Source of the DNA: Clostridia bacterium
GTDB taxonomy: Bacteria > Bacillota > Clostridia > Oscillospirales > CAG-272
Assembly: GCA_017399105.1 (NCBI GenBank)
Contig: JAFQEJ010000003.1
Location: forward strand, 19,213 to 83,212
Length of the DNA stretch: 64,000 nucleotides
Reading direction: 5' to 3'
Below the pieces are notes generated by a model that worked only from the letters and a program-made list of their open reading frames with translations, was not told the DNA's origin and ran no database searches. This document shows positions 2,205 through 23,625 of this stretch, one piece after another; position 1 is the stretch's first letter; every line of letters starts with the position of its first letter. The translations under genes were made by a program, and so were the position numbers.

Positions 2205-2232
2205 AATACCTCCTGATTCATAAAATTTCCTC

Positions 2233-3555
2233 TCAATAATCCGCCAAACTCACACCGCCCCATGCCCCGGAATCCCATGTGTCATCTTCTTCAACTCCCG
2301 CATCTGTCCGCGACATCACCGCATATCTGAGTGCCTCTGGCATGTGCGTGATGCTGTGCGGTTCGCTCGCCGCATCCTCGCATCTCCTCTTGTCAAAGAG
2401 AAGCGCCCCCAGACAGCGAATCAGCTCTGTACAGCTCACATCAATGATCAGCTTTCTCTCCCCGCGCAAATACTCACGAAGACAGCGCCATCCGATCACC
2501 CTTCGGTCGTCTGCCCTTATCAGCGGCGGCAGTTCACGATTCCGACTCATAATTTCAAAGCCGCTGTACCCCGTGTCCTGCCGCCTGTTCCAAAGATCGG
2601 GACTGGCTGCAATGTACTCAATCTCCTCCCCTGCACAAAGAGAAGCCACCGTCTCCGCCGCCTCGGATATGGTCAGCCCCGACCGACAGAATTCCCTGTA
2701 AACGGTCAGCCTTCCCTCACCGTCCACCGCACAGAATACCACTGCCGTCATGTCAAAGCCGTAATCCATCGCACAGAATCGCCTTGCCCCCGCAGGAAGC
2801 ACAACCTCCTCCACATGCCGCTCGGCTGTAAATTCGGGAAAGAACTGCCCCTCGAATAAATCCCATCGTCCCTCAAGCCAGGCACTCCTCAGCTTCTCGG
2901 GCAGCGAATCAAGCTGAGATACATAGTCGGGATTCACCGCCATCAGCGCCTCGTTGTCGTAAACCAACGCCTGTACAAAGCAGTAATCCTCCTCCCGCTC
3001 CCCCGAATGGTAGATCCTGTCAACAAAAAGCCGCTTCACCCAGGCATGCCCCACACCGCCGGGATTGCAGGTCAGATACATCCGCTTGGGATATCCGCTC
3101 GTGCCGCGCAGACATGCTTTCAGCGTCATAAACTGATACTCGGTCAGCTGCGTCGCCTCGTCAATGGCAATCACGTCATATTCCTGCCCCTGATACCTCA
3201 GCACATCCCGCTCCGCCGCACAGAATCCCAGAAAAATCCGACTTCCGTTCGGGAAGGTAAAGCACTTTGCCGCATCGCTGTAATGTACCGCATCCCCCAG
3301 CTCGGCAAGCAGCGGAAGCATGTGATTGCAGCGCAGCTCCCCGTAGCTTCGTCTGATAATCAGCGCTGTAATGCCCGGATAGCGAAAAGCCATCAGAATC
3401 AGCTTTCGCCGCAGCGCCCAGGACTTGCCGCCCCCTCTCGCACCGCCGTAAGCGGTAAACTTGCAGCGTGAAGCAAAAAACGCCTGCTGCTTTTTGTTGG
3501 GCTTCCCCAGAAGATTCACCTTTTTACTCACCGTCAGCCTCCCCGTCATGATCAC
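2233..3555 (-). CDS. terL: phage terminase large subunit
   Basis: Walker A-like motif YGGARGGGKSWA, the segment DVIAIDEATQL, and a C-terminal nuclease-like region. Size and position after terS fit. Confidence 0.9.
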   Translation of the reverse strand: MIMTGRLTVSKKVNLLGKPNKKQQAFFASRCKFTAYGGARGGGKSWALRRKLILMAFRYPGITALIIRRSYGELRCNHMLPLLAELGDAVHYSDAAKCFTFPNGSRIFLGFCAAERDVLRYQGQEYDVIAIDEATQLTEYQFMTLKACLRGTSGYPKRMYLTCNPGGVGHAWVKRLFVDRIYHSGEREEDYCFVQALVYDNEALMAVNPDYVSQLDSLPEKLRSAWLEGRWDLFEGQFFPEFTAERHVEEVVLPAGARRFCAMDYGFDMTAVVFCAVDGEGRLTVYREFCRSGLTISEAAETVASLCAGEEIEYIAASPDLWNRRQDTGYSGFEIMSRNRELPPLIRADDRRVIGWRCLREYLRGERKLIIDVSCTELIRCLGALLFDKRRCEDAASEPHSITHMPEALRYAVMSRTDAGVEEDDTWDSGAWGGVSLADY

Positions 3556-3877
3556 AGAAAACAGTTACCGCACCGCCGTCCCGCTCCTCCTCGGGAGAGG
3601 TCAGCGATCTCAGATAGCTCATGGTTGTTCCCGAATTGGGAGCCTTCATGTTCAGCGCCTCGTCAATGAATGCAGACTCCAGCAGATCATACTCCAGCGG
3701 ATAACATTCGCGCAGCGCATATAACTCCTCCCGCTTGATTTTCGCAAACCTGCAGAAGCCCGCCGCATTGGGAAGCCGTCTCTTCTGCATGCACATGGCA
3801 AGATAAGCCTCAAAGCTCTCGTGAAATTTCGCCCGCGACCTCACCGCCTCCCTGCGTTTTGTCTTTCCCATTTTCAT
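3524..3877 (-). CDS. terS: phage terminase small subunit
   Basis: MKMGKTKRREAVRSRAKFHESFEAYLAMCMQKRRLPNAAGFCRFAKI.. is typical of a small terminase HTH N-terminus. RBS is ggaagggg. The gene overlaps the terL start. Confidence 0.65.
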   Translation of the reverse strand: MKMGKTKRREAVRSRAKFHESFEAYLAMCMQKRRLPNAAGFCRFAKIKREELYALRECYPLEYDLLESAFIDEALNMKAPNSGTTMSYLRSLTSPEEERDGGAVTVFCDHDGEADGE

Positions 3878-3927
3878 CACCCCTTCCGTTGTGCCTGTAT
3901 CATACACCAAAACAAATTCTTATACAA

Positions 3928-3965
3928 TCGCAAAGCGTCGCAAAGTGTCGCAAACCATCGCAGAA
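3928..3965. repeat. four direct TCGCA(A/G)A(G/C/A) repeats with exact 10-bp phasing
   Basis: tcgcaaag at 3928, tcgcaaag at 3938, tcgcaaac at 3948 and tcgcagaa at 3958. Further copies lie at 4126, 4230 and 4245. Confidence 0.8.
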
Positions 3966-3985
3966 ACTTTTAAAGCATGTTTTGG

Positions 3986-4014
3986 TTGACAGAAAATAAC
4001 AAAAGTAGTATAAT
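3986..4014 (+). promoter_or_regulatory. consensus sigma-A promoter (TTGACA, 17-bp spacer, TATAAT)
   Basis: TTGACA at 3986-3991 and TATAAT at 4009-4014 with a 17-bp spacer. It points rightward, away from the phage genes. Confidence 0.6.
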
Positions 4015-4139
4015 AAAAATATCTATGGAATGATGTACCATCTCCGATTTTTCGCTCCCCCACCCCCAAAACGGACGACCGATGGTCGCCCCTGCTGCAA
4101 TGTAACACAATATCTTGATCAATTATCGCAATCTCAACG

Positions 4140-4187
4140 CCTCGCCCTCCGGGAGAGGTAGCATGCCGTAAGGCATGACGGAGAGGG
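4140..4187 (+). repeat. 47-nt hairpin-containing intergenic repeat, copy 1 (copy 2 at 36905-36951)
   Basis: CCTCGCCCTCCGGGAGAGgTaGCATGCCGtAaggCATGaCGGAGAGGG. The central CATGCC-GTAA-GGCATG forms a hairpin. Confidence 0.75.
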
Positions 4188-4366
4188 CAACCACCGTCAT
4201 TTCATCGGTTACCCGCTCCATGCGAAAATTCGCAAAGCAAATTATCGCAGTTTAGGGTGAGCCTTGAGGTATGTGCTGTTTTAAAGTTTTAAGCGTTACA
4301 TTGTATTACAAATTTTTACAATCCCCTTATCCCCCACAAAAATCCCCTCCGAAAGGAGTCCCACCC

Positions 4367-5602
4367 ATGCACGATCGCCCCACCGCCGACGCCCTCCGTC
4401 CCACCACCCTCGACGATATCGTCGGCCAGCCCCATCTTTTCGGCAAAAACGGCTCCATCCGCCGTATGCTTGAGCGCGGCCATATTCCCAATATGATCTT
4501 CTTCGGCCCCCCCGGCACCGGCAAAACCACCGCCGCAGGCATCATCGCCGCAAGCTCGGGCATGACCCTCCACCGCCTCAATGCCACAACCGCCTCCATT
4601 GCCGATGTCCACGAAATCACCAAATCCACATCCTCCCTCTTCGGCTCGGGCGGTATCCTCCTCTATCTGGACGAAATCCAGTATTTCAACAAAAAACAAC
4701 AGCAGTCCCTGCTCGAATACATCGAGGACGGCAGAATCACCCTCATCGCCTCCACCACCGAAAATCCCTATATCTATGTCTATAACGCCATCGTCTCCCG
4801 CTCGGCAGTCTTTGAATTCAAGGCAGTCCCCCCCGAAGCCCTCCGTCCCGTCCTCCTGCGTGCGCTGGACAGGCTCAATGCAGATCAAGCCGAGCCGACC
4901 GCCTTCACCGATGACGCCCTCGATTACATCGCCGCAGCAGCTGCCGGAGATGTGAGACGCAGCATCAACCTCCTGGAATCCGCCTACTTCTGCGCCGCCG
5001 ATGCCACCGTCACCCTGGAGATCGCGAAGAATGCCTTTCCCTCCCCCCACGGGCACTATGACCGGGACGGAAGCGTCCATTTCGATATGCTCTCCGCCCT
5101 CCAGAAGTCGATCCGCGGCTCAGATCCCGATGCCGCCGTCTTCTACCTGGCACGCATCCTTGAGGGAGGCGATCTCATCGGAGCCTGCCGCCGCCTGCAG
5201 GTCATCGCCAGCGAGGATATCGGCCTTGCCTATCCCATGGCAGCCGCCGTCGTGCGCGCCTGTGTGGAGTCCGCCAAGGAGCTGGGCATGCCCGAAGCCC
5301 GTATTCCCCTCGCCCATGCGGCACTGCTGCTTGCCACCGCCCCCAAATCCAACTCTGCCGAAGCCGCCTACGATGCCGCCAAAGCCGCTGTTGAATCGGG
5401 CGCAGGCAGAACGGTCCCCCCCTACATGAGCCCCACCCATCAGTACCAGAATTACAAATACCCCCACGCCTTCCCTAACCATTGGGTCGACCAGCAATAC
5501 CTTCCAGACGAGCTGAAAAACGCCCGCTTCTACGAATACGGCGAGAACAAAACCGAACAGGCTGCGAAGGCATATTGGGACAAGATCAAGGGAAAAACCT
5601 GA
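4367..5602 (+). CDS. rarA: replication-associated recombination protein A (AAA+ ATPase, RarA/MgsA)
   Basis: LRPTTLDDIVGQPHL..FFGPPGTGKTT Walker A, LYLDEIQYFNK Walker B, and a MgsA C-terminal region (..SALQKSIRGSDPDAA.FYLAR). RBS is gaaaggag. The start was moved to M33 of the ORF. Confidence 0.9.
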   Translation: MHDRPTADALRPTTLDDIVGQPHLFGKNGSIRRMLERGHIPNMIFFGPPGTGKTTAAGIIAASSGMTLHRLNATTASIADVHEITKSTSSLFGSGGILLYLDEIQYFNKKQQQSLLEYIEDGRITLIASTTENPYIYVYNAIVSRSAVFEFKAVPPEALRPVLLRALDRLNADQAEPTAFTDDALDYIAAAAAGDVRRSINLLESAYFCAADATVTLEIAKNAFPSPHGHYDRDGSVHFDMLSALQKSIRGSDPDAAVFYLARILEGGDLIGACRRLQVIASEDIGLAYPMAAAVVRACVESAKELGMPEARIPLAHAALLLATAPKSNSAEAAYDAAKAAVESGAGRTVPPYMSPTHQYQNYKYPHAFPNHWVDQQYLPDELKNARFYEYGENKTEQAAKAYWDKIKGKT

Positions 5603-5669
5603 CAAAGTCCCCTCAACGAAAATGGTTCGCCCTTCCCAAAAAACAAATCCACTCCGAAAGGACACCGCC

Positions 5670-5981
5670 ATGAAAGATAAAAAATCCCCCGCTCAGTATA
5701 ACCTCTCCTCAGCCATCATCGCATGGCTCTGCGTCGCCGGAAGCATCGCTACCGCCATCATCATCTATTTCAACGAAGGCCGCCTTCCCACCTTCGCCTC
5801 AATTCTCGTCATCATCGCCCTGATCGTCCTCGCTGTCGCCGCCACAATTTCGGCATGGCGCACCCGTAACGACAAAACGCCCCGCGAATACGAGATCGAT
5901 CCCACCCATCCCGATGCCATTTTCGGCAAGGTCTATGTCACCCCCTCCGAGGATGACAAAGAAAACAGCGACAGCGAATAA
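5670..5981 (+). CDS. small membrane protein (2 predicted TM)
   Basis: Two hydrophobic stretches (AIIAWLCVAGSIATAIIIYF and FASILVIIALIVLAVAATISAW). RBS is gaaagga. Confidence 0.6.
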   Translation: MKDKKSPAQYNLSSAIIAWLCVAGSIATAIIIYFNEGRLPTFASILVIIALIVLAVAATISAWRTRNDKTPREYEIDPTHPDAIFGKVYVTPSEDDKENSDSE

Positions 5982-6016
5982 CCGCCGCCGCCAATATCAA
6001 TCAAGGAATCATCCAC

Positions 6017-7411
6017 ATGAACAAATACCAAAAGCTCATCTCCAATACCGCCATCCTCGCCATCGGTACCTTTGCCTCCAAGGTGCTGGTATTCCTGCTC
6101 ATGCCCCTCTATACCAGCTGCCTCTCCGCCGCCGAGTATGGCACCGCCGACCTGATCACCCAGACGGCAAATCTCATCATTCCTCTTCTCGCCTGCGGCA
6201 TTGTCGAAGCGGTCTTCCGCTTTGCACTGGATAAAAAGAGCAACCTCGCCCGCGTCTTTACTACAGGCTTTGTGGTCATCTGCGCCGGCGTCGCCCTCTT
6301 TGCCATTCTCTCGCCCCTCCTCTCAAAAATCAACTATTTCGGCGAGTACACCGCCCTCATCATCGCCTATGCCGCCGCATCCTGCTTCCATTCGCTCTGT
6401 GCCCAGTTCGTGCGCGCCACAGGCAAAACCTCGCTTTTTGCTTTTCAGGGAATTCTCAGCACGCTGATCACCATCATTCTCAACATCATCTTCCTCGTAG
6501 CCTGCGACATGGGCGTGGAGGGTTATGTACTCTCTGTAGTCTTCTCGGATATCGCCGCCACCATCTTCCTTGTGATCACCGCCCGTCTCTGGGGCGCACT
6601 CCGTTTTGACCGCTTCAAGCTCTCCTTCGCCTTCGAGATGCTGAAATTCAGCGTCCCCATGATCCCCACCACCATCTTCTGGTGGATCACCAATGTAGCC
6701 GACCGCTACATGGTACGCGATATCTGCGGCAAGGAAATCAACGGTCTCTATGCCGTTGCCTATAAAATCCCCACCCTGCTTATTTTAGCCTCGGGCGTTT
6801 TCATCGAGGCATGGCAGTTCTCCGCCGTCACCGAAAAGGGCAGCCGCGAGCACACCGCCTTCTTCGGCAAGGTTATGGGAAGCTTCCAGGCGATGATGTT
6901 CATGGTAGGCTCGGTGCTTGTGGCATTTTCCAAGATTTTCACCATGCTTCTGGTGGATCCCTCCTACTACACCTCTTGGCGCTACATTCCGATTCTCTCT
7001 GCCGCCACGGTATTTTCCAGTCTTGTGACCTTCATGGGCAGCGTTTATCTGGTGGAAAAGAAGAGTATTCTCTCCTTCGTCACCTCCTTCATCGGTGCAG
7101 GCGTGAACATTCTGCTCAATCTGCTGCTCATTCCGCACTTTGAAGCGATCGGAGCGGCGATTGCGACCTTCTTCAGCTATTTTGTTGTATACATCATTCG
7201 CGCCATCAACTCGCGCAGTTATATTCCCTTTGATTTGCACAACCGCAAGGTTGCATTCAACACAGCGGTGATTCTGCTGCAATCGACCGTGATGATTCTT
7301 GAGGTCCCCTTCTGGATTCCGATGCAGATTCTTTGCGTCGGATTGATTGTAGGGGTGAACATCAAGCCGATATTGGTGGGGATGATGAAGCTTATTCGGA
7401 GAGGGAGATAA
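6017..7411 (+). CDS. MOP-superfamily oligosaccharide/polysaccharide flippase (Wzx/SpoVB-like)
   Basis: 464 aa and multi-TM. The N-terminus ISNTAILAIGTFASKVLVFLLMPLYTSCLSAAEYG is typical of the polysaccharide biosynthesis protein family. Confidence 0.75.
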   Translation: MNKYQKLISNTAILAIGTFASKVLVFLLMPLYTSCLSAAEYGTADLITQTANLIIPLLACGIVEAVFRFALDKKSNLARVFTTGFVVICAGVALFAILSPLLSKINYFGEYTALIIAYAAASCFHSLCAQFVRATGKTSLFAFQGILSTLITIILNIIFLVACDMGVEGYVLSVVFSDIAATIFLVITARLWGALRFDRFKLSFAFEMLKFSVPMIPTTIFWWITNVADRYMVRDICGKEINGLYAVAYKIPTLLILASGVFIEAWQFSAVTEKGSREHTAFFGKVMGSFQAMMFMVGSVLVAFSKIFTMLLVDPSYYTSWRYIPILSAATVFSSLVTFMGSVYLVEKKSILSFVTSFIGAGVNILLNLLLIPHFEAIGAAIATFFSYFVVYIIRAINSRSYIPFDLHNRKVAFNTAVILLQSTVMILEVPFWIPMQILCVGLIVGVNIKPILVGMMKLIRRGR

Positions 7412-7902
7412 AAGCAGAGATTAAGGGTTCGAGCTTGGATGAAGATCGATCGTTCCGTTCGTGCGTTTTTTTGGGACGACAATATCGTGCATCCCACAAA
7501 ATAAACTCGCAGCAGTGCCCATCCCTTAGCGAAACCACGCAAGCTGAAATGCAAAAGCGTTTGCTGTAACTTCAACATCCGCTGAAGAAATCCTTTAAGT
7601 TAAATAACGCTTGGCTCCCCTAACGATTATTAAGCTGTTCACCGGCTGCACGATTGAATCAATTAGGTATACCTCAATATAGCGAACGGTAAACACTCAC
7701 CACAGAGGTAAGCCTAAAGCAACTCTTTTTCACCGTCCCACGATTGGGTCGTCAGTCAGGAGTCCATGGGAAACCCCTGGCGGCGCCTTTCTTTGCTTCG
7801 TTTCTTACTCGCTGTAGAGAAAGAAATGAAGAAACCGGTACAAACAAATTCAGCTAAACCTCATCCACCCAAACCAAACTAACCACAACCACAAAAACCA
7901 TC

Positions 7903-8799
7903 ATGAAAAAAGGTATTCTCCTCACCCTCATCGCCGGTACCCTCTGGGGTATCATGGGCCTCTTCGTCCGTACCCTCGGCAGCACCGGCCTCGACTCCAT
8001 GCAAATCGTCGCCATGCGCATCATCTTCACCGCCGTCATCCTCGCCGCAGGCGCCGCACTCTTTAAGCCCTCCCTCTTCAAAATCCGCCTCCGCGATCTC
8101 TGGTGCTTCCTCGGTACCGGCATCATCAGCATCGTCCTCTTCACCTATTGCTACTTCAGAACCATGACCCTCACCTCGCTTGCCACCGCCGCTGTCCTTC
8201 TCTATACCGCTCCCGTCATGGTCATGCTCATGTCAATCCTCTTCTTTCGTGAGAAAATCACCCTGCGGAAGCTCATCTCCTGCGCCCTCGCTCTTGTCGG
8301 ATGTGTCCTCGTCACAGGAGTCCTCGGTGAATCGGGAGCCATCTCCCCTGCAGGTCTTGCCCTCGGTCTCGTCTCCGCCTTTGGCTATGCCCTCTATTCC
8401 ATTTTCGGCAGAGTCGCCCTCAACCGCGGCTATCATCCCCTCACCCTCACCCTCTATACCTTCCTCTTCGCCACCCTCGGCGTCCTTCCCCTCACCAATC
8501 TCAGAGGCATCGCCGAAGTTGCCGCAGAGTCGCCCACCGTCATCCCCTTCGGAATCCTCATGGCAGTCATCTCCGCCGTCATCCCCTATACAACCTATAC
8601 CACCGCCCTCACCTATATCGAATCGAGCCGCGCATCCATCATCGCCTCGGTGGAGCCTGTTGTCGCCACCCTCACCGGCATTCTCATCTTCCATGAGCCC
8701 CTCACACTCGACAGCCTCGCGGGCATCATCCTCGTCCTCGCATCGCTTGTCCTGCTGAATCTGGAGCCGAAAAAATCCAAAAAGGAGAAGGAATCATGA
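7903..8799 (+). CDS. DMT-superfamily (EamA-like) transporter
   Basis: About 10 TM segments in a duplicated EamA-type architecture, with N-terminus LIAGTLWGIMGLFVR. Confidence 0.8.
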   Translation: MKKGILLTLIAGTLWGIMGLFVRTLGSTGLDSMQIVAMRIIFTAVILAAGAALFKPSLFKIRLRDLWCFLGTGIISIVLFTYCYFRTMTLTSLATAAVLLYTAPVMVMLMSILFFREKITLRKLISCALALVGCVLVTGVLGESGAISPAGLALGLVSAFGYALYSIFGRVALNRGYHPLTLTLYTFLFATLGVLPLTNLRGIAEVAAESPTVIPFGILMAVISAVIPYTTYTTALTYIESSRASIIASVEPVVATLTGILIFHEPLTLDSLAGIILVLASLVLLNLEPKKSKKEKES

Positions 8800-9731
8800 C
8801 AAATCCCTTCCCCTATTCCGACTCAAATAAACGTTACCATACCTACGATTACCACCTCCGCAGCCTCCACGGCACAAAGTGCTGTAAAATCCCCCTGGAC
8901 GGCGGCTTCACCTGCCCCAATATCGACGGCACCAAATCAAAGGGCGGCTGTGTCTACTGCTCAGCCAGAGGAAGCGGCGATTTCACCGCCGGACGGGATA
9001 AATCCATCCCCGAGCAGTTCGCTGTCATGCGCGAGATCATGCACCGCAAATGGCCGTCTGCCCGCTTTGTCGCCTATTTCCAGGCGTTCACCAATACCTA
9101 TGCCCCCGTCCATGTCCTCCGCACCAAATTCGAGGAAGCCATCGCCCAGCCCGACGTGGTCGCCCTCAATATCGCCACCCGCCCCGATGCCCTCCCCGAT
9201 GACGTGGTCGCCTACCTGCGCGAGCTGTCGGAGCGCATCGACCTGACGGTGGAGCTGGGACTTCAATCCTCCTCGGATGAAACCGCCGCCCTCATCAATC
9301 GCGGTCATACCTTCGCTGATTTTGTGGAAGGCTTCGAAAAGCTGCGAGGTATCAAAACCTGCGTCCATATCATAAACGGGCTCCCCGGCGAGGATAAAGC
9401 CGCCATGCTGAAAACCGCCCGCGACCTGGCATCCCTCCACCCCCACAGTGTCAAAATCCACCTGCTCCATGTCTTAAAAAATACCACCCTCGCCGACTGG
9501 TACCGGGAGCATCGCTTCGACTGCCTCACCCTCGAGGACTATGTGGATATCACAATCTCCCAGCTGGAGCTTCTCCCTGCCGATATCGTCATCGGCAGAC
9601 TCACCGGTGACGGAGCCGAAGCCGACCTCATCGCCCCCCTCTGGTCAAAGAAAAAAGTCATCGTCCTGAACGAAATCGATAAAGCCATGGCTGCCCGCAA
9701 TACCTGGCAGGGACGCCTTGCCGAGAATTAA
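8796..9731 (+). CDS. radical SAM protein, TIGR01212 family
   Basis: KIPLDGGFTCPNIDGTKSKGGCVYCS motif and family-typical length. The start overlaps the upstream stop (ATGA). Confidence 0.85.
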   Translation: MTNPFPYSDSNKRYHTYDYHLRSLHGTKCCKIPLDGGFTCPNIDGTKSKGGCVYCSARGSGDFTAGRDKSIPEQFAVMREIMHRKWPSARFVAYFQAFTNTYAPVHVLRTKFEEAIAQPDVVALNIATRPDALPDDVVAYLRELSERIDLTVELGLQSSSDETAALINRGHTFADFVEGFEKLRGIKTCVHIINGLPGEDKAAMLKTARDLASLHPHSVKIHLLHVLKNTTLADWYREHRFDCLTLEDYVDITISQLELLPADIVIGRLTGDGAEADLIAPLWSKKKVIVLNEIDKAMAARNTWQGRLAEN

Positions 9732-9884
9732 CGCCCGCCCCCGACAGCATTGACCGAAGCTAAGACGCTGCAGCCATTCTCACAGCGATACACCAAACCA
9801 TCAGAAAGGCTCATGACCGCCCCCATTGCCCATGTAACATTCATCATCATCTCGCTCCACCCCCGAACGAAAGGATCTTTCACC

Positions 9885-10355
9885 GTGCAAAAGAATCATC
9901 CTACACCAACCACCGATATTCACTATATGCGCCTCGCCCTCGAGCTTGCCCGCGAAGCTGCCGCCGACGGAGAAGTCCCCGTGGGTGCCCTCATCGTCCA
10001 AAAGGGTGAGATCATCGCCGCCGCCCGCAACCGCCGCGAAAAGGGGAAGAGTGCCCTCCTCCACGCCGAGCTCGAAGCCATCGGCATCGCCTGTGAGAAG
10101 CTGGGCGGCTGGCGTCTGCCCGACTGCACCCTCTATGTCACCCTCGAGCCCTGCCCCATGTGCGCCGGTGCCATTGTCAATTCCCGCATCCCCCGCATCG
10201 TCTTCGGTGCAGGCGATCCCCGTGCAGGTGCCTTCGGCTCAATGCTCGACCTGCGTAACTATCCCCTCGGTCATAAACCCGAGATCACCCGCGGCATCCT
10301 GCAGGAAGAATGCGCCGCCCTCCTCCGCGATTTCTTTAAATCCAGACGCAAATAA
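9885..10355 (+). CDS. tadA: tRNA adenosine(34) deaminase
   Basis: HAE..(CDA motif) and TLEPCPMCAGA zinc-binding motifs. The GTG start at 9885 was chosen after the RBS gaaagga, giving 156 aa. The longer ORF from 9750 is unlikely. Confidence 0.85.
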   Translation: MQKNHPTPTTDIHYMRLALELAREAAADGEVPVGALIVQKGEIIAAARNRREKGKSALLHAELEAIGIACEKLGGWRLPDCTLYVTLEPCPMCAGAIVNSRIPRIVFGAGDPRAGAFGSMLDLRNYPLGHKPEITRGILQEECAALLRDFFKSRRK

Positions 10356-10382
10356 CCCCGGAGAATCCTTCTGTGCCCCCAC

Positions 10383-10559
10383 TTATCCACAGAATTTCAG
10401 GTTCTCCACATTTTTCTGTGGAAAATAGAACTATTGTTCGCTTTTGTTTTCCACACTTTGAACATCTTTTCCACAACCTGCAACAAATCGCTCAAAGTTT
10501 TCCACAACGCATCCATTTGTTCGCCTTACTTTTTCCACATTACGAACATCTTTTCCACA
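10383..10559. promoter_or_regulatory. cluster of eight DnaA boxes
   Basis: TTATCCACA at 10383 (perfect match). One-mismatch boxes are TTCTCCACA at 10402, TTTTCCACA (rc) at 10417, and TTTTCCACA at 10447, 10467, 10498, 10531 and 10551. Confidence 0.8.
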
Positions 10560-10599
10560 GCTTGCGACAAAATCGCCCCTTTTTGCCCCCTTGCTAGCT

Positions 10600-10790
10600 G
10601 TACTATATTAGTGTAGCTGTATAACTAAATCCTTAGTACAGACTATAGATCTGTAGTTATATATAATTTATTATTTATTCTTTTTCTTTTTTAAATAAAA
10701 AATATAATTAAGCTAAACTTTATATACCACCAAATCAATTCTTATACAGTAGCAAAATGGATTTATTTACAAAAAAGATACAATAAAGAG
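10600..10790. other. strongly AT-rich tract adjacent to the DnaA-box cluster (candidate DNA-unwinding element)
   Basis: About 190 bp with very low GC in a GC-rich genome. It contains repeated CTGTA/TACAG words and A/T runs and has no ORF. Confidence 0.5.
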
Positions 10791-10839
10791 CCACGGACAT
10801 GCCGTGACCCTTAAAATTTCATTCGGTTCGGATGCGCTC

Positions 10840-12321
10840 TTATCTGGCAGCTGCATACTTCTCGTTGAATTTATCGAATGCCTTCTGATAAACCTTGGTC
10901 TGCTTCTCGATGAGAGAGGTGATATCCTCCCTGTCCTGGAAGATGTTGTACATCAGCAGTCCCGCATCGGCAAGGCTGTTGGAATAGATAAGCAGCGGCT
11001 CGAAAACGGTGCCCTCAATGAGCAGGTCGCACATCTTCTTGGAGCCCTCGTCGCGGCTGTACTTCTCCTTCAGCGCAATGTCAAGGTAGGCAGGCGTTAC
11101 TGTGCGGTAGCTCTCGGCAGCCATCGCCTCGGTCACAGCACCGACCATCTCCAGATCCTGGGTTGTAATCGGTACACAGAGCAGTGAATAGTTATCATGG
11201 GAAATGGTGTGATACTTCTCCTGTGTCTCATCATACTTGGGATAGGGCACAAAGCCGAAATCCGACTCCATATCGCGGAAAATCGAGGTGGAAAGGAAGC
11301 GCTCGGGATAGAAGAGACAACGGTCATTGACAAAAACCGTAACCTCCTGCTGACGGTCAGCAAGCAGCGTCTTCATGGAGAAGGCAGCCGGTGAATTGTG
11401 CATGAAATCGTAGACTCTCTTGTAAACATCCACAAACTTATCGTTGTAGATGGTGAGCACCAGATTGCCCTCATCGTCAAACTCGGTCAGATCAATTTCT
11501 GTGGAGGTGAGGAATGCGTTGAAGGAAAGCGTCGCAACGCCGTACATGTCGTTCACATCATAGGTGGAGTTGCCGTCCAGATCCTGAGTCACGCTCGATG
11601 CGATGTTGATGTAGTTCTCCAGCGTCCATGTGCCGTTGAAAACCATCTCATACAGATCGGGAATCTGATACTCCTCAGCCACCGACTTGTTGAAATAGAT
11701 GCAGAAAATCTCGGAAATCAGCGAGAGCGAATAGTCGCCGCTCATAAAGTAGAGCACATCGTTGATGACCAGCTTATCCATGATCGAATCGGGCCACCAG
11801 GGCATCTCAAAATCGATGTGGGGCAGATCCTGCAGGTCGATGAAGTAGCCCTCCAGCGCCAGAGGCGTGATGTAGTAGGCATAAGCCGCCGCAATATCGT
11901 AAACCGACAGATCAGCCTGAATGTTCTTCTTGACCGTGTTGTTGTAGTCAGCCTTCTCCACAAGAACAGACTCGATGGAGACGCCAAGACGCTCCGCCAC
12001 GCTCATATTCTTCTCATAAATGGCATCGTTAACCACGTCGCCGGTCTGCTTTTCCACCACAATCTCGCCGCCTTCAAAATAATCGTCGCTGCGGCAGAGC
12101 ACACGGTAGCTGTCACCGTCAAATTTGAGCGTGGGATCCAGCGTGTCGGGATAATTCGCGCGGGTGAGCTCGGTCTCGACAGCCTCAGATTCAGCAGCAG
12201 CCGCCGCCGTTGTCACAGCACTGCCCTCATCCTCGACAGGCTCCGAGCAGGATACCACCGTCATCAGTATCATCAAAACCGCCAGCATCAGCGCAGCAAT
12301 GCGATTGAATGAATTCTTCAT
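10840..12321 (-). CDS. ABC-transporter extracellular solute-binding lipoprotein (large ~495-aa sugar-binding type), orphan copy 1
   Basis: Lipobox in MKNSFNRIAALMLAVLMILMTVVSC. It is a paralogue of 22124-23608 and 52841-54328 (shared ..PYPKYDE.QE.YHT... block). RBS is aaaggag. Confidence 0.8.
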   Translation of the reverse strand: MKNSFNRIAALMLAVLMILMTVVSCSEPVEDEGSAVTTAAAAAESEAVETELTRANYPDTLDPTLKFDGDSYRVLCRSDDYFEGGEIVVEKQTGDVVNDAIYEKNMSVAERLGVSIESVLVEKADYNNTVKKNIQADLSVYDIAAAYAYYITPLALEGYFIDLQDLPHIDFEMPWWPDSIMDKLVINDVLYFMSGDYSLSLISEIFCIYFNKSVAEEYQIPDLYEMVFNGTWTLENYINIASSVTQDLDGNSTYDVNDMYGVATLSFNAFLTSTEIDLTEFDDEGNLVLTIYNDKFVDVYKRVYDFMHNSPAAFSMKTLLADRQQEVTVFVNDRCLFYPERFLSTSIFRDMESDFGFVPYPKYDETQEKYHTISHDNYSLLCVPITTQDLEMVGAVTEAMAAESYRTVTPAYLDIALKEKYSRDEGSKKMCDLLIEGTVFEPLLIYSNSLADAGLLMYNIFQDREDITSLIEKQTKVYQKAFDKFNEKYAAAR

Positions 12322-12436
12322 GATAATCTCCTTTGTAACTTTTTTGTGGCTATATTGTATCATATTTCCCCAATTTCGTAAATCATAAAAAGAAAAAATA
12401 TCAATTTTTATGACTTTTTCGTCAATAATTGCGAAT

Positions 12437-12468
12437 AAAAAAGTCACAGGTATATTTCAACCTGTGAC
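12437..12468 (-). terminator. rho-independent terminator after yoeB (copy 1 of a duplicated hairpin)
   Basis: Reverse complement reads GTCACAGGTTGAAATATACCTGTGAC followed by TTTTTT. Confidence 0.7.
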
Positions 12469-12484
12469 CAATAACATCAACCTG

Positions 12485-12754
12485 TTATTTATCTCTGTAA
12501 TGAGAGCCACACTGAATACTGAATAATATAAATACTGCCTCCTTGATTTTATACACAATTCGGTTGCAGTCATCAATCCGCCTGCTCCAATAACCGCCAA
12601 GATCGCCCACAAGCGGCTCCGGCTTGCCGATCCTCTCATACCCGCCGCGCTCAATGTCGCGAATTAGCTGGTTGATGCGTTTCAGCGTCTTTTTATCCTG
12701 CGCCTGCCAGTATAGGTAGTCATCCCATGCGTCATCATGCCAGATTTTAAGCAT
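12485..12754 (-). CDS. yoeB: type II toxin, YoeB/Txe family
   Basis: MLKIWHDDAWDDYLYWQAQDKKTLKRINQLIRDIERG..GKPEPL....GYWSRRID..NRIVY with a C-terminal ..HY. It overlaps the antitoxin stop by 8 nt. Confidence 0.9.
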   Translation of the reverse strand: MLKIWHDDAWDDYLYWQAQDKKTLKRINQLIRDIERGGYERIGKPEPLVGDLGGYWSRRIDDCNRIVYKIKEAVFILFSIQCGSHYRDK

Positions 12755-13019
12755 TTTCTCCGTCCTCGATCAACTCATGGACCGTGCCCTTCCCCACTTC
12801 GATTTCAGCCGCAGCCTTTTTCAACCGAGCAGTATTCTCAGCGCTGTAAAAGGGATCACTGTCCAGCGCAATCTCAAAGGGAATCCGACGCTCCCTGACC
12901 ACGGTTTTCGCAAAAATATTAATCGCCGTAGACATATTCATGCCAACCGCATTGCAGAAGCTGTCAAACTGCTTCTTTAATTCCTCATCCATACGAATGT
13001 TGATGTTCGTCTGTCCCAT
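12747..13019 (-). CDS. type II antitoxin, RelB/DinJ-type RHH N-terminus with a YoeB-neutralising C-terminus
   Basis: TNINIRMDEELKKQFDSFCNAVGMNMSTAINIFAK.. is a DinJ-like RHH. The C-terminal DPFYSAENTARLKKAAAEIEVGKGTVHELI follows. RBS gagagg lies 8 nt before the ATG at 13019. Confidence 0.85.
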   Translation of the reverse strand: MGQTNINIRMDEELKKQFDSFCNAVGMNMSTAINIFAKTVVRERRIPFEIALDSDPFYSAENTARLKKAAAEIEVGKGTVHELIEDGENA

Positions 13020-13226: not shown

Positions 13227-15296
13227 CTAGTCCTCGTCCTTCTGTGCTTCAGCGATGATCTTCTGAGCAACGGGAGCGGGAGCTTCCTCGTAGCGTGTGA
13301 AGTAGAAGGTAAAGCTGCCTCTGCCCTGGGACATTGCGCGCAGAGAAATGGTGTAGTCGGTCATCTCGGAGATCGGAACCTCAGCCTCAACCATCTGATA
13401 ACCCTTCTTGTTCGGGATCGCGTTCATGCCGAGAACTCTGCCGCGGCGCTTGTTTACGTCACCGATAACATCACCAACGAGAGAATCCGGAACGACAGCC
13501 TTCAGCTCACCAATCGGCTCGAGGATAACGGGGTTCGCCTTGGCAAGACCGTCCTTGTATGCAAGCGATGCAGCCAGCTTGAACGCCATTTCCGAAGAGT
13601 CAACGTCGTGGTAGGAGCCGTCATAAAGATCAGCCGCCAGATTAACAACAGGGAATCCTGCGAGAACGCCCTTCTGCATTGCCTCGATCAGACCCTTTTC
13701 AACTGCGGGGAAGAAGCCCTTCGGAACGCTTCCGCCGACAACAGACTCGGTGAAGGTAAGTCCCTCAGCCTCGCCCGGCTTGAAGGTGATCTTGACATGA
13801 CCGTACTGACCGTGACCGCCCGACTGCTTTTTGTGCTTGCCTTCAGCCTGAACAGTCTTCTTGATGGTCTCACGGTATGCAATCTTCGGCTTAACGAGAT
13901 CAACGCTGGTGCCGTAGCGAGATTTCAGCTTGGAAACAACAACATCCAGATGAATGTCGCCAAGACCCGAGATGCAAAGCTGCTTGGTCTCTGCGTTGTT
14001 CTCGAAACGGAGTGTGCGGTCTTCCTCGAGAAGCTTGGTAATACCCGAGGAGATTTTATCTTCATCGCCCTTCGCCTTGGGCACAACAGCCATCTTCATG
14101 AAGGGTTCGGGATATGCTATGGGCGCATACTTGATGTCCTCAGCCGAGGTGGTGAGAGTATCGCAGGTGTTGGTAGCATTCAGCTTTGCAATGACACCGA
14201 TATCGCCGCAGCAGAGGGTATCAACCTCGGTCTGCTTCTTGCCGCGGATGGTGTAAATCTTCGCCATCTTCTCCTGCGCGCCGGTGGTGGTGTTGCGGAG
14301 CGTCATGGTGTTGTTCAGCTCACCGGTCATAACCTTGAAGTAGGACATCTTGCCTACGAAGGGGTCAGCAACCGTCTTGAATACAAAGAGCGAGGTGGTG
14401 GTATCGTCAGCAGCAATGGCGATCTCTTCGCCGTCAGCACTCATCTCCACCTTCTTTGCGGTGTGTCTGGGATAGGACTCGGCAATGACATCGAGCAGCG
14501 TCTCAACGCCCCACATCTTGAGTGCGGAGCCGCAGATAACAGGAGCGATGGTACCGTCAATAATACCCTGATGGATGGCTTCCATTGCTTCATCGCGGGT
14601 GATTTCCTCGCCGCCGAAGTATTTTTCCATCAGCTCGTCCGAGGTCTGAGCGATCGACTCATAGAGAATGTCGCGGTATTCGTTTGCAACCGGCATGAAT
14701 TCCTCGGGAATGGAGCCCTCGGAGTGAGCACCGGTCTTGTCGTAAACATACGCCTTCATGTCAACCAGGTTGAGGAAGCCGATAACAGCGTTGCCTTCGA
14801 TCATCGGGATGATGATGGGGCAGACAGAAACGCCGAAGGCATCCTTGAGCTGTCCGAACACTCTTGCAAAGCGAGCCTCGGGATCGTCAAACTTGTTGAT
14901 GAAGAAGGACTTGGGAATGCCGGCTTCGGTTGCATAGTCCCATGCCAGCTGAGCGCCGACCTCAACGCCCGACTTGCCGTCGATGCAGATGAGAGCGTTG
15001 TCGGCTACGCGGATGCCCTGCAGCTCTTCGCCCACGAAGTCGAGGTAACCGGGTGTATCTATAATATTGATCTTGATATCCTTCCACATGACCGGTGCGA
15101 GTGCGCCCTGAAGCGAGAAGCCGCGCTTGATTTCTTCGGGATCGTAGTCGCAAACAGTGTTGCCCTCGGAGGGTTTGCCGAGACGGTCGGACGCATGACT
15201 TAAATAGAGCATTGCTTCGGCAAGCGAAGTCTTTCCGCTGCCGCCGTGTCCGATCAGGCAGATATTTCTGATTTGCTTGGTAAGAATCTTGTCCAT
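13227..15296 (-). CDS. elongation factor G family GTPase (EF-G2-like paralogue)
   Basis: G1 motif GHGGSGKTS, DTPG, NKFD, and full five-domain length (689 aa). The P-loop style matches EF-G2-type rather than canonical AHIDAGKTT. Confidence 0.8.
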   Translation of the reverse strand: MDKILTKQIRNICLIGHGGSGKTSLAEAMLYLSHASDRLGKPSEGNTVCDYDPEEIKRGFSLQGALAPVMWKDIKINIIDTPGYLDFVGEELQGIRVADNALICIDGKSGVEVGAQLAWDYATEAGIPKSFFINKFDDPEARFARVFGQLKDAFGVSVCPIIIPMIEGNAVIGFLNLVDMKAYVYDKTGAHSEGSIPEEFMPVANEYRDILYESIAQTSDELMEKYFGGEEITRDEAMEAIHQGIIDGTIAPVICGSALKMWGVETLLDVIAESYPRHTAKKVEMSADGEEIAIAADDTTTSLFVFKTVADPFVGKMSYFKVMTGELNNTMTLRNTTTGAQEKMAKIYTIRGKKQTEVDTLCCGDIGVIAKLNATNTCDTLTTSAEDIKYAPIAYPEPFMKMAVVPKAKGDEDKISSGITKLLEEDRTLRFENNAETKQLCISGLGDIHLDVVVSKLKSRYGTSVDLVKPKIAYRETIKKTVQAEGKHKKQSGGHGQYGHVKITFKPGEAEGLTFTESVVGGSVPKGFFPAVEKGLIEAMQKGVLAGFPVVNLAADLYDGSYHDVDSSEMAFKLAASLAYKDGLAKANPVILEPIGELKAVVPDSLVGDVIGDVNKRRGRVLGMNAIPNKKGYQMVEAEVPISEMTDYTISLRAMSQGRGSFTFYFTRYEEAPAPVAQKIIAEAQKDED

Positions 15297-15731
15297 AGGT
15301 ATGAGTCCCCTTTACTGTAAAATGCACTGTGGGTTTTCCCACAAGATATGCGTCATCGTGGAAAAATATATTAGGTATTATCACAACAACTAAAGTTATT
15401 ATACTCCTTTTTTTTGTGATATGCAAGAGGTATTTTCAACTTTTCGTATGGTCAGCGTAAAAATATACGAAAGTTTTTTGTGCATTCTGCCCAACTTCGC
15501 CGACATTTGATCCGATTCGCCCTCCGACAGCCCGGCAAATCCAAAATGGAAATTCTTCACGCCGATAAGCCGCATCCGATTCATTTGCCCCTCCCACAGC
15601 CGCGTACCACAAAAAATTCCCAAATATCACATCGTTTTACCTTGATAATTTATGACAAATCCTTTACAATAATCATATAATTGTGCAGTTATACACATTC
15701 TCAATACACCCTTTCGAAAGGAGACGCAACC

Positions 15732-16859
15732 ATGACCAACCGTGAATTATTTAAAAATTATGTAAAAAACGGCGGCAAGGACTTTATCTGCTCACCTCAG
15801 ATCGGTGCCGGTGCCGGCTTTGATACCCGTCTTGCCGGCAAGACCTGGATGACCGCCACCACCATGGAGGACACAGTAAACGCCTGCCGTCAGTTCGATA
15901 TGATCCCCCTCTACAACCTGGGTCTGCCCGATGTTTCCCAGCTTGTTTCCTCGGTGCAGATAACCGGCGAGATGACCGAAAGCGAAGGCGGCAAGCGCAA
16001 AAACTACAACAACACCTTCAAGTGCCCCCTCGGCGAGCTTTACTCCCGCATGATCGACGAGGAGCTCAAGGGTGCCTGCCCGGTAGAATTTTATGTAAAG
16101 GAAGAAGAGGATCTTGATATCCTCGAATATTACCTCGATGCGCTGCTTGAGGTGAAGGATTTCTCTCTCATTGAAAACGGCGTGCGCGGCTGCCGCAATT
16201 TCATCGGTGAGGACGAGGCTATGGACATTCAGTGGGCAATGCAGCCCTATGAGCTGATGGGCTTTCCCTCCACCATGGATACTGCGATTCTTGCCTCTGT
16301 AGCCGAGGAACAGTGCCGTCGCCTGATGGACAAAATCCTGCAGCTGGACGAATATCTCATTGACGCGGCGGCAAAGGGCGGCACCGACTTTGTATTCCTT
16401 GGCGGTCCCGGCTCCGAGATGATCTCTCCCAATTATTACGAAAACTTCCTCGTGCCCTATTCCAAGCAGGTGACCGAGATGGTACATAAGGCAGGTCTGC
16501 TTGTCTACACCCACATCTGCTCGCCCATCGAGCCGATGCTGACCAATGGCTACTACAACCAGATGGGTATCGATCTCTTCGAGACTCTCTCCGAAGCGCC
16601 GGTGGGCAATGTCAAGAGCATCGAGGACGCCTTCACCAAGCTCTCCCCCGAGATCTGTACCAGAGGCAACATCGGCCTTGACGCTCTGCTCAACGAAACC
16701 CCCGAGCAGGTCTACGAGCGCGCATGGAAGATTCTCGATGCGGCGAAGAAGATGGGACGCAAGCATATTCTGGCAGCATCCGACTATATGTTCTACGATA
16801 CCAAGACCGAGAATGTTCACGCTATGTGCAAAGCGGTGAGGGAGTTTAACGCGCAGTAA
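15732..16859 (+). CDS. uroporphyrinogen decarboxylase (URO-D) family protein
   Basis: TIM-barrel URO-D/MtaA-like C-terminal half (..FVFLGGPGSEMISP..Y..F..PY...) at about 375 aa. RBS is gaaaggag. Confidence 0.6.
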   Translation: MTNRELFKNYVKNGGKDFICSPQIGAGAGFDTRLAGKTWMTATTMEDTVNACRQFDMIPLYNLGLPDVSQLVSSVQITGEMTESEGGKRKNYNNTFKCPLGELYSRMIDEELKGACPVEFYVKEEEDLDILEYYLDALLEVKDFSLIENGVRGCRNFIGEDEAMDIQWAMQPYELMGFPSTMDTAILASVAEEQCRRLMDKILQLDEYLIDAAAKGGTDFVFLGGPGSEMISPNYYENFLVPYSKQVTEMVHKAGLLVYTHICSPIEPMLTNGYYNQMGIDLFETLSEAPVGNVKSIEDAFTKLSPEICTRGNIGLDALLNETPEQVYERAWKILDAAKKMGRKHILAASDYMFYDTKTENVHAMCKAVREFNAQ

Positions 16860-16904
16860 ACCAGTATACATTGCAGCAAAAAGTAAGACAAGGAGAATAC
16901 AACT

Positions 16905-17933
16905 ATGGAAAACAAAATTAAAACCTCCCGCGAAAAGGTAATGGAGGTATTCGAGCACCGCAGCAACGGCGACGGTGTTATGTGGACCGGCAATCCCACA
17001 AACGAGGTGGTCGCCGAAGCTTCCAAGCTCTATGGCATCGAGAATAACGCAGAAGCGCTCTATCGCTTCCTTGACGATGACTGCCGCTGGATCCCCGCCG
17101 ATTCGGGTTATCGCCATCCCGAGGGACGCCCTGCCATCGATACTGCCTACAATACCAAACGCGATACCCTTTCTGCTGAGGGTTGCTTCGCCGACGCGAC
17201 GCTTGCCGATATTGAAGCCTATCCCTGGCCGGATGTGAAATACTGCGACTTCACCGACGTTTACAAGCAGATCGACCAGTTCCAGGATAAAGCGGTCTTC
17301 ACCGGTATGTGGGGATGCTTCTTCCATCTGGTCGCCGACTTCTTCGGCATGGAAAATTATTTTATCAAGATGTACGAGGAGCCCGAGCTTGTCGAAGCCG
17401 TCACTGAGCATGTGGTCGACTACTACGTGGAAGCAAACGATAAATTCCTCGCCGGCCTCGGAGACCGTGCCGATTATGTCTTCTTCGGCAACGACTTCGG
17501 TACTCAGCTCGATCTGATCATCTCACCCGAGCTCTTCCGCAAATTTGTGCTTCCCTCCTTCAAGCGCTTCATTGATGTGGGAAAAAAGTATAACAAGAAG
17601 ATCCTTCTCCACTCCTGCGGCTCGATCTGGCGCATCATCCCCGATCTCATCGATGCAGGCGTCGATGCCATCCATCCCATCCAGGCACAGGCAGTCGGCA
17701 TGAGCGCAGCCGAGCTGGCACAGTATAAAAACGATCTCGCCTTCGTCGGCGGTATCGATGCCCAGTCCTTCTTCGTCAACGCTACCCCCGAGGAGATGGA
17801 AGCCGAGGTCATGCGCGTAAGAGACATCCTCGCCCCCAGCATCGTCATCTCCCCCAGCCATGAGCGCATCCTCCCCAATGTACCCGCCGCCAATGTGGTC
17901 GCCATGGCGAGGGCTGCTAAAAAAGAGAGATAA
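16905..17933 (+). CDS. uroporphyrinogen decarboxylase (URO-D) family protein
   Basis: ..FFGNDFGTQ..L.ISPE.FR.F..P..KR.....K.....LHSCGSI..IIPDLID.GVD..HPIQ.. is typical of URO-D-like proteins in Clostridia. Confidence 0.7.
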   Translation: MENKIKTSREKVMEVFEHRSNGDGVMWTGNPTNEVVAEASKLYGIENNAEALYRFLDDDCRWIPADSGYRHPEGRPAIDTAYNTKRDTLSAEGCFADATLADIEAYPWPDVKYCDFTDVYKQIDQFQDKAVFTGMWGCFFHLVADFFGMENYFIKMYEEPELVEAVTEHVVDYYVEANDKFLAGLGDRADYVFFGNDFGTQLDLIISPELFRKFVLPSFKRFIDVGKKYNKKILLHSCGSIWRIIPDLIDAGVDAIHPIQAQAVGMSAAELAQYKNDLAFVGGIDAQSFFVNATPEEMEAEVMRVRDILAPSIVISPSHERILPNVPAANVVAMARAAKKER

Positions 17934-18039
17934 ACGAAAATCAGCACTTGTGAAAGGCGGGATGCTTCCTATCCCGCCTCTCATTTTTTCTATACAGATA
18001 ATAAAGAACAGATAATAAAGAAAATTTCGTCAATACCCC

Positions 18040-18068
18040 TTGACAAATGCGAAGGTTTGTGATATGAT
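18040..18068 (+). promoter_or_regulatory. sigma-A promoter of the tRNA operon
   Basis: TTGACA at 18040-18045, a 17-bp spacer, then TGaTATGAT (an extended -10) ending at 18068. Confidence 0.7.
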
Positions 18069-18094
18069 ATTAAAGCGATGTTTTGAGAGCATCT

Positions 18095-18168
<74 letters not shown>

Positions 18169-18208
18169 ACCTTTTTTAAGGCCCCCCCTCAAAGCATCAA
18201 AAAAGCCT

Positions 18209-18285
18209 GTACCCATAGCTCAGCCGGATAGAGCAACTGCCTTCTAAGCAGTAGGTCGGAGGTTCGAATCCCCCTGGGTACGCCA
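18209..18285 (+). tRNA. tRNA-Arg (anticodon TCT)
   Basis: Acceptor GTACCCA/TGGGTAC, anticodon stem ACTGC/GCAGT with loop CTTCTAA, T-loop TTCGAAT, CCA encoded. There is one A-C mismatch in the T stem. Confidence 0.85.
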
Positions 18286-18288
18286 TAT

Positions 18289-18366
18289 GGTGGTTGTAGC
18301 TCAGTTGGTTAGAGCGCCAGGTTGTGGCCCTGGAGGTCGAGGGTTCGACTCCCTTCAATCACCCCA
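18289..18366 (+). tRNA. tRNA-His (anticodon GTG) with encoded G-1
   Basis: Extra 5' G, acceptor GTGGTTG/CAATCAC, anticodon loop TTGTGGC, T-loop TTCGACT, CCA encoded. Confidence 0.9.
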
Positions 18367-18373
18367 TACGAAA

Positions 18374-18397
18374 AGCATCCTATGGGTGCTTTTTTTT
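18374..18397 (+). terminator. rho-independent terminator of the tRNA operon
   Basis: AGCATCC-TAT-GGGTGCT hairpin followed by TTTTTTT. Confidence 0.8.
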
Positions 18398-18580
18398 CGT
18401 AAATGAAGCGCACCTACGGAGGATATCATATAAGGAATGACAAGCTGTCAGTTCAATTCCTCGATTTCGCCGTTTCGATCATCAGCCTCGTTAAAACCGA
18501 AGCCGGATGCCGCCTGTACTCCTCTTCTGTGATGCCGATTTCCTCCTTTAACACCGCAAAAGCAAATGAACAGACACTTT

Positions 18581-18603
18581 GGAGCCCAATAGGCTCCTTT
18601 TTT
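18581..18603 (+). terminator. second rho-independent terminator with no annotated gene upstream
   Basis: GGAGCC-CAATA-GGCTCC hairpin followed by TTTTTT. Confidence 0.65.
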
Positions 18604-18679
18604 CGTCCACTGTCATTTCCCTATTGCACAACCGTAAAATTTATGATAAAATATCCATATAACCACGCAAACGGGAGGT

Positions 18680-19636: not shown

Positions 19637-19742
19637 TTATATTGAAGAAAACAGCAGTTTGTGTTATTTTACTATTCGAATTTGTGTTCCCGATCAAAAA
19701 AGCATTTGACAAGCAAGAATTTGATGAAGGGTAGTATATTTC

Positions 19743-19919: not shown

Positions 19920-20074
19920 AATTAATTGAGCCTTCCGTTTTAATTGCAGCTTACAGAAACATAAAGATCATGGAAGATTCATTCTATGATAAAGGAATTT
20001 TCTCCAAATCAATGGAAATTTTCCGCATCCTGTGATACAATATACTAAAAACAACCCCGAAAGGAGCTATCACA

Positions 20075-23608: not shown

Positions 23609-23625
23609 AAATTCAATACAAAAAA

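Follow-up and report, generated by a model that had tools for sequence, protein, structure and literature searches.

Does an array of DnaA boxes beside an AT-rich tract mark a site where replication starts, even when no dnaA gene is near? This question is raised by a module in a 64,000-nt stretch of DNA from a Clostridia bacterium (Oscillospirales, CAG-272; assembly GCA_017399105.1, contig JAFQEJ010000003.1, positions 19,213 to 83,212), which was analysed as a whole and is here called the window. Directly 3' of tadA, the gene for tRNA adenosine-34 deaminase, the window contains eight DnaA boxes, a G+C-rich spacer and a conserved AT-rich element (Table 1). The original prediction had recognized in this arrangement the layout of a Firmicutes oriC half, and had offered a DnaA-titrating cluster, a relic, and a displaced or secondary origin as explanations. 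We conclude that this module is not the origin of the chromosome. Instead of a displaced origin, it is most likely a site that sequesters or regulates DnaA, and on balance it is probably a chromosomal DnaA assembly site outside the origin, of the class formed by the DnaA-box clusters (DBCs) of Bacillus subtilis and by datA of Escherichia coli. A titrating cluster of this type is the only one of the suggested explanations that survived our tests.

The array itself is as it had been described: eight boxes within 177 bp (10383-10559), all at the positions first given for them, seven of them direct and one inverted. One is a perfect TTATCCACA, one reads TTCTCCACA and six read TTTTCCACA. Seven of the eight fit TTWTNCACA exactly, and these account for 7 of the 11 exact matches in the 64 kb. 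Boxes with at most one mismatch number 23 in the window, versus 10.3 ± 3.3 in shuffled sequences, none of which reached 23. Taking the box density outside the array as background, a Poisson estimate puts the chance that any 177-bp interval of the 64 kb holds at least eight boxes at about 1e-11. A cluster of this kind is far more than chance would produce. In about 2.0 Mb of related Oscillospirales loci, three or more boxes per 200 bp were found nowhere. The duplication noticed within the array is real and larger than the ~33 nt initially given: 41 nt (10447-10487 versus 10531-10571) are 85% identical, and a further part covers 17 nt (10434-10450 versus 10517-10533). The box pairs of the two duplicated units are present in relatives as well.

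Those relatives came from a protein search for tadA, while scans of sequence collections with tadA gave only distant ones (closest 68% identity among the matches listed), with a box cluster in none of the 160 loci. In three species, the window species and those represented by L164 and L163, the module lies directly 3' of tadA and begins 28 bp past its stop codon (10353-10355 in the window). L164 belongs to a set of Logan contigs (L164-L166) whose TadA protein is 82% identical to that of the window over the whole gene; L163 comes from the NCBI metagenome-assembled genome GCA_053312775.1 (80% identity). At the fourfold degenerate sites of tadA, L164 and L163 are only 52% and 33% identical to the window and therefore represent different species.

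These fourfold sites serve as a neutral yardstick, and the parts of the module differ strongly when held against it. The eight boxes are 85-88% identical to the window in L164 and L163. The AT-rich element is 82% identical in L164 (193 nt, 3 gap columns) and 80% identical in L163 over 103 nt, where that contig ends. In contrast, the spacers between the boxes are 43-53% identical, like the neutral sites, and the G+C-rich spacer behind the last box 60-66%. Past 10788 identity is 38%, a value for L164 only since the L163 contig stops earlier, and similarity to L164 ends at 10793. Boxes and AT-rich element lie well above the yardstick and are therefore under purifying selection, while the rest drifts. 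The suggestion that the module is a relic is thereby contradicted. In L164 the module sits between tadA and the gene for elongation factor G (EF-G). In the more distant L008 the gap between these two genes consists only of a 90-bp bidirectional terminator, and the module has thus arisen within a narrow clade. It is also missing from the EF-G relatives L174 and L175 (75-76% identity) and from the tadA relative L168 (69%).

Not only the boxes but also their distances are kept. Box positions agree within 1-3 bp among the three species (Table 1). Most direct boxes lie within ~1.5 bp of one 10.5-bp phase and therefore on one side of the helix. Between the last box and the AT-rich element, the distance is equal in two of the species and differs in the third by about one helical turn. 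Across three species, this pattern is suggestive of an array and an AT-rich element that form one working unit, and of selection that may act on a defined nucleoprotein structure beyond the mere number of boxes. Apart from the boxes, a GAAC(A) word stands 3-5 nt past boxes 3 and 4 (10426-10431 and 10459-10463) and is invariant in all three species; it also occurs past box 7 (10544-10548) in two of the three. The word may reflect a preference of DnaA for certain flanks, or be a half-site of another protein.

The AT-rich element follows the boxes and contains the most AT-rich 190 bp of the window, in agreement with the original prediction (10598-10787, 20.5% GC; next lowest 26.8%). It is most likely an element that acts at the DNA level. 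It holds no conserved open reading frame (ORF) of at least 20 aa, its RNA folds no better than shuffled sequences on either strand (z about -1), and Rfam gave no match at the module, permissive thresholds (E<5) included. Two candidates were rejected. A small ORF of 9 aa in the window and 65 aa in L164 shares its start between the two, and has no ribosome-binding site and unrelated tails. An RNA gene was discarded on the Rfam and folding results. Searches for dif, B. subtilis Ter, parS and the Spo0A box gave no match above the window background, and an nhmmer profile found no second copy of the element in 3.5 Mb of fetched loci, canonical origins included.

These properties also bear on the idea that the boxes are operators, with DnaA controlling a promoter in the AT-rich element that would drive an unannotated short transcript either leftward (antisense to tadA) or rightward. 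DnaA does act as a transcription factor at the B. subtilis DBCs sda, ywlC and yydA (PMC3245932). In the alignment we read a TATAAT word that is kept in three of three species and a minus-strand TGnTATATA word that is kept in the window and L164. However, a consensus promoter scan of 9700-11200 detected no promoter-like site, the lack of a conserved ORF, of an Rfam match and of a notable fold argues against the idea, and right of the element the window and L164 are unrelated. Both neighbouring genes end at the module, which leaves no known gene to regulate. We consider an operator function unlikely.

If the module were a working origin, it could be the sole oriC, displaced from dnaA, or half of a split one, or else an additional origin that is conditional or dormant in the manner of Pseudomonas oriCII; the AT-rich element would then be its unwinding element. 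Its order is origin-like: the box array is followed by a G+C-rich spacer and then by the most AT-rich tract of the window, and the dnaA-dnaN spacers of relatives share this order of box, GC stretch and AT-rich stretch. Of the features expected of an oriC, the cluster of DnaA boxes is present, and the adjoining conserved tract of 20.5% GC might act as the unwinding element. Spacing and helical phase of the boxes are kept with a spacer that varies by about one turn, the AT-rich element is selected as DNA, and origin-like regions that replicate on a plasmid yet are dispensable in the chromosome have precedent (PMC13438810). As anatomy, the oriC-half layout thus holds; the trio module, the skew change and the gene divergence of an origin are missing, as detailed below.

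We analysed GC skew on the top strand in 3-kb bins after joining the window to overlapping contigs of the same species. Skew was negative in 27 of 27 consecutive bins (-9.5 to +71.5 kb) and showed no sign change at the module, nor over the 83 kb as a whole; it averaged -0.06 far left, -0.24 in the block just left of the module and -0.07 to the right. As a control we used L312, a canonical origin of the same order. There, the skew switches sign at dnaA, from about -0.12 to +0.12 with values of -0.10/-0.17 on one side and +0.10/+0.17 on the other, and every gene points away from the origin (gene order parB, mnmG, mnmE, jag, yidC, rnpA, rpmH, origin, dnaA, dnaN, recF, gyrB, gyrA, CPBP, tadA). Therefore, normal skew rules hold in this order. 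Orthologous loci gave a second line of evidence. In L163, G predominates on the top strand left of the module (skew +0.18 at tadA), whereas the left flank of an origin shows the reverse. For tadA, skew at the third codon positions (GC3 skew) amounts to -0.60 in the window and -0.34 in L164, and to +0.25 in L163. The unit of tadA and module therefore faces the replication fork oppositely among species, and since fork sense differs, the module cannot be the origin in all of them.

The strongly skewed block is an observation in its own right. It covers ~12 kb (window ~1-10400 and on to about -1500 on the overlapping contig L171) with values near -0.25, while both of its flanks are near -0.07. It spans minus-strand phage-like genes and plus-strand host genes alike, fades gradually to the left and ends sharply at the DnaA-box module.

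A third line of evidence comes from the genes around the module. The divergence expected of an oriC is not seen: tadA on the plus strand converges with a 493-aa lipoprotein gene and the EF-G gene on the minus strand, as the original prediction had pointed out for the immediate neighbours, and tadA and EF-G converge in L164, too. Using tblastn over window coordinates -9547 to +73490, we searched for 13 proteins of the kind encoded in origin regions and found none of DnaA, DnaN, RecF, GyrA, GyrB, ParA, ParB, MnmE, MnmG, YidC, Jag, RsmG and RpmH, which confirms and extends the reported absence of dnaA, dnaN and rpmH from the window.

Finally, the module was compared with the basal unwinding rule of Pelliciari et al. 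(PMC8287927), which requires a box followed, after a spacer of no more than 16 bp, by at least three NAN DnaA-trios. Within 16 bp of box 8 towards the AT-rich tract no run of trios exists; TAG CTG TAC breaks the trio pattern. The pattern matched only inside the array or pointing away from the AT-rich tract. In contrast, L044, L103 and L312 show the rule in their dnaA-dnaN spacers, where a spacer of at most 16 bp leads to a trio run, as opposed to 35-46 bp and none in the module. These canonical spacers resemble the module in having boxes of one orientation, a G+C-rich stretch and an AT-rich tract; they are built from degenerate TTTTNNACA-type boxes, a short G+C stretch, TAA/TAC trios and a T-rich tract. 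They contain hardly any box with at most one mismatch from TTATCCACA (none in L312, none in L044, one, TTATTCACA, in L103), and the near-consensus boxes of the module are of much higher quality. In addition, the AT-rich element has no detectable similarity to the canonical oriC regions of the order. That is, the module differs from canonical Firmicutes origins in spacer length, trios, skew switch, gene divergence and the company of dnaA and dnaN. Pseudomonas oriCII, located at gidA, is alike in being a conserved origin-like DnaA-box region which is not the working origin of its chromosome. However, it overlaps the promoter and 5' end of gidA and regulates the operon (PMC13438810), whereas the module has no downstream gene. 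Taken together, a displaced or secondary oriC conflicts with the skew, the converging genes, the missing trio module and the reversed tadA skew of L163, and we rate a working origin of any of these kinds as improbable, though a dormant or conditional activity could be compatible with these data.

It is more doubtful still that the TTTTCCACA repeats bind a protein other than DnaA, or that the module derives from a mobile element (for instance a plasmid, phage or island), either as its remnant or as its origin. The surroundings provide some grounds for this idea, with a phage-like head and packaging cluster 6.5 kb to the left and a RelB/YoeB pair 1.7 kb to the right, and an unrelated viral contig (L218) carries a six-DnaA-box array. 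But the variants TTATCCACA, TTTTCCACA, TTATGCACA, TAATCCACA and TTCTCCACA are those expected of DnaA boxes, as is the exact fit of most boxes to TTWTNCACA. Neither a rep gene nor an iteron set adjoins the module, and a comparison with 72,556 plasmids and 50,697 phage records showed nothing similar to it. Its chromosomal position after tadA is kept in three of three species, the toxin-antitoxin and lipoprotein genes being missing in L164, and purifying selection rules out a decaying remnant. We thus regard this explanation as very improbable. Exact 15-16-mer matches to viral contigs were discarded as chance. One such 15-mer match led to L218 (IMG/VR UViG_3300023311_000940), a contig that ends in six direct TTATCCACA-type boxes ~21 bp apart (9888-9982), with no dnaA nearby.

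How might a DnaA assembly site outside the origin work here? Eight high-quality boxes whose mutual distances are fixed and whose direct members share a helical face would load a cooperative DnaA oligomer. Such an oligomer could withdraw the initiator from the true origin or change its activity state, and would in this way help to time initiation. The AT-rich element, 35 or 35+11 bp from the last box, would belong to the same unit. It may be where a nucleoid-associated cofactor docks or bends the DNA, in the way of IHF at datA and DARS2, or alternatively a readily melting segment that the DnaA filament would extend onto.

Among known systems, the B. subtilis DBCs come closest. Clusters of DnaA boxes outside oriC were reportedly described in this organism by Ishikawa in 2007. 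Like the module, DBCs combine many near-consensus boxes in an intergenic position of a Firmicute chromosome away from dnaA. Six of them jointly restrain initiation (Okumura 2012, PMC3245932), and non-origin clusters are predicted to be common in Firmicutes (PMC3245932). The gcp-ydiF cluster also lies between the 3' ends of two convergent genes and strongly favours ATP-DnaA (Smith & Grossman 2015, PMC4447404). High box quality is shared with the strongest non-origin DnaA sites of B. subtilis (PMC4447404). DBCs usually lie beside genes that are at least ancestrally near the origin, and the same holds for the module: in other Oscillospirales (L044, L103, L312) tadA lies 9-10 kb from dnaA, so that its ancestral position is close to the origin.

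Several points weigh against a DnaA assembly site of the DBC type. DnaA binding and function in this organism are predictions made from the DNA sequence, and a canonical oriC elsewhere in the genome is presumed from the relatives; a DnaA search gave no match on the 198,455-bp and 188,863-bp contigs, nor any accession within the range of this metagenome-assembled genome. Between the module and any origin gene lie more than 63 kb on the right side and more than 20 kb on the left, whereas proximity to the origin made the B. subtilis DBCs most effective. The module is known in three species, in one of which the contig stops within the AT-rich element. Moreover, a simple titration site would need neither fixed spacing nor a phased AT-rich element. 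No conserved AT-rich partner is described for the B. subtilis DBCs and no fixed helical phasing is reported for them; the authors found no structural feature that distinguishes active from inactive clusters (PMC3245932). In its fixed geometry and its phased, conserved AT-rich element, the module goes beyond the DBCs described so far.

For this additional part, datA and DARS of E. coli offer a model. They too are box clusters outside the origin in which geometry matters. The mechanism at both datA and DARS2 involves an IHF site in fixed register, and at DARS2 Fis takes part as well. A second, AT-rich protein-binding site within the unit would explain the phased AT-rich element of the module. 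The resemblance is one of logic only, as there is no sequence relationship. The sole WATCAA-like word that we found by eye lacks the TTR of the IHF consensus, and an IHF site is far shorter than the 193-bp element. In addition, what datA and DARS alter is the nucleotide state of DnaA. Such control is not known in Firmicutes, for which no cis-acting DNA element or regulator changing this state has been reported (PMC4447404). A more specific proposal is a two-part machine, in which the phased oligomer that DnaA forms on the eight boxes would act on the AT-rich element, either by melting it, as a conditional or dormant second origin, or by switching the activity state of DnaA together with a bound cofactor. 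We put this forward tentatively, as a possibility with less in its favour than a DnaA assembly site outside the origin as such.

Table 1. Coordinates of the module, its neighbours and the sequences used for comparison (window positions unless a locus is named; (-) marks an inverted box).
Feature	Coordinates	Strand	Description
DnaA box 1	10383..10391	+	TTATCCACA, perfect; aligned counterpart in L164 and L163
DnaA box 2	10402..10410	+	TTCTCCACA
DnaA box 3	10417..10425	-	TTTTCCACA; inverted in 3/3 species; sole inverted box of the window array
DnaA box 4	10447..10455	+	TTTTCCACA
DnaA box 5	10467..10475	+	TTTTCCACA; starts 20 bp past box 4; -84 from last box in 3/3 species
DnaA box 6	10498..10506	+	TTTTCCACA; -53, -51, -53 from last box (window, L164, L163)
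DnaA box 7	10531..10539	+	TTTTCCACA
DnaA box 8 (last)	10551..10559	+	TTTTCCACA; starts 19-20 bp past box 7 in 3/3 species
Box starts from last box, window	0, -20, -53, -84, -104, -134(-), -149, -168		
Box starts from last box, L164	0, -19, -51, -84, -104, -133(-), -148, -167		
Box starts from last box, L163	0, -20, -53, -84, -101 (inverted), -136(-), -151, -171		
Old internal duplication	10434..10571	+	two ~54-nt units, period 83-84 bp, box pair 20 bp apart in each
G+C-rich spacer, last box to AT-rich element	10560..10594	+	35 bp here and in L164, 46 bp in L163
Conserved AT-rich element	10595..10787	.	193 nt, ~20% GC
Intrinsic terminator (hairpin) of 493-aa gene	10786..10812	-	right border of the conserved element, outside the module
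tadA (tRNA adenosine-34 deaminase)	9813..10355	+	Pfam and NCBIfam matches; 180-aa gene on source contigs
Lipoprotein gene, 493 aa	10840..12321	-	no Pfam or NCBIfam match
yoeB	12485..12754	-	toxin-antitoxin pair with relB
relB	12747..13019	-	toxin-antitoxin pair with yoeB
EF-G gene	13227..15296	-	conserved right neighbour
Canonical origin spacers, L312	9075-10001 and 11320-11528		
Canonical origin spacer, L044	1203-1408		
Canonical origin spacer, L103	855-1040		

In the wider neighbourhood, the plus strand to the left of the module encodes MgsA/RarA, a flippase, an EamA transporter, a radical-SAM protein and TadA, preceded on the minus strand by the phage-like cluster of packaging and head genes and then by ilvBNCD. 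This cluster, located between ilvBNCD and mgsA, covers window positions 453-3910 and continues to about -3757 on the overlapping contig L171. It comprises the genes of both terminases, small and large, together with those of a 583-aa protein, a P22-type portal and a capsid protein, and a few small genes; no gene for tail, lysis, integrase or replication functions was found within the sequence covered. Possible readings of the cluster are a remnant, an island that forms capsids and a gene-transfer-agent-like set.

To the right, EF-G and tadA are convergent in the window, in L164 and in the more distant L008. The lipoprotein gene, yoeB and relB, which occupy 10840-13019 between module and EF-G in the window, are missing from L164 and are therefore a later insertion in the window species. 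The lipoprotein gene has a paralogue (22124-23608, 35% identical) next to genes for an AraC regulator and an acetyl-xylan esterase, and in one strain (L001/L172) it is broken into ORFs of 274 aa and 206 aa. Further right, the plus strand carries two URO-D family genes, tRNA genes, a CPBP (Rce1-like) protease gene and sugar-utilisation genes. The tRNA cluster (18095-18366, plus strand) consists of tRNA-Gly(TCC), tRNA-Arg(TCT) and tRNA-His(GTG); according to GC skew it is on the lagging strand, which is unusual for tRNA genes. A comparison of window 15608-23641 with L163 327-9343 revealed a different gene order, with the block of esterase, AraC and lipoprotein genes inverted and a GGDEF gene in L163 that the window does not have. 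The URO-D/tRNA/CPBP block lies on the opposite side of tadA and the module in L163 as compared to the window. The adjacency of CPBP and tadA is widespread (at least 28 loci, plus L312 and L044), but broken in the window.

Control of initiation is poorly known beyond a few model species, and nothing is known of it for uncultured gut Oscillospirales. For these bacteria, the locus provides a worked example of how an origin-like array can be told from a real origin by local skew, gene orientation, a control origin of the same order and the reversal of skew among orthologues. Its evolutionary footprint, with boxes kept, spacers neutral, distances fixed and the AT-rich element shifted by one helical turn, leads to a testable proposal: geometry and a partner element may matter here, as they do at datA. 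If the cofactor version of the two-part machine were true, the module would be a Firmicute counterpart of datA or DARS.

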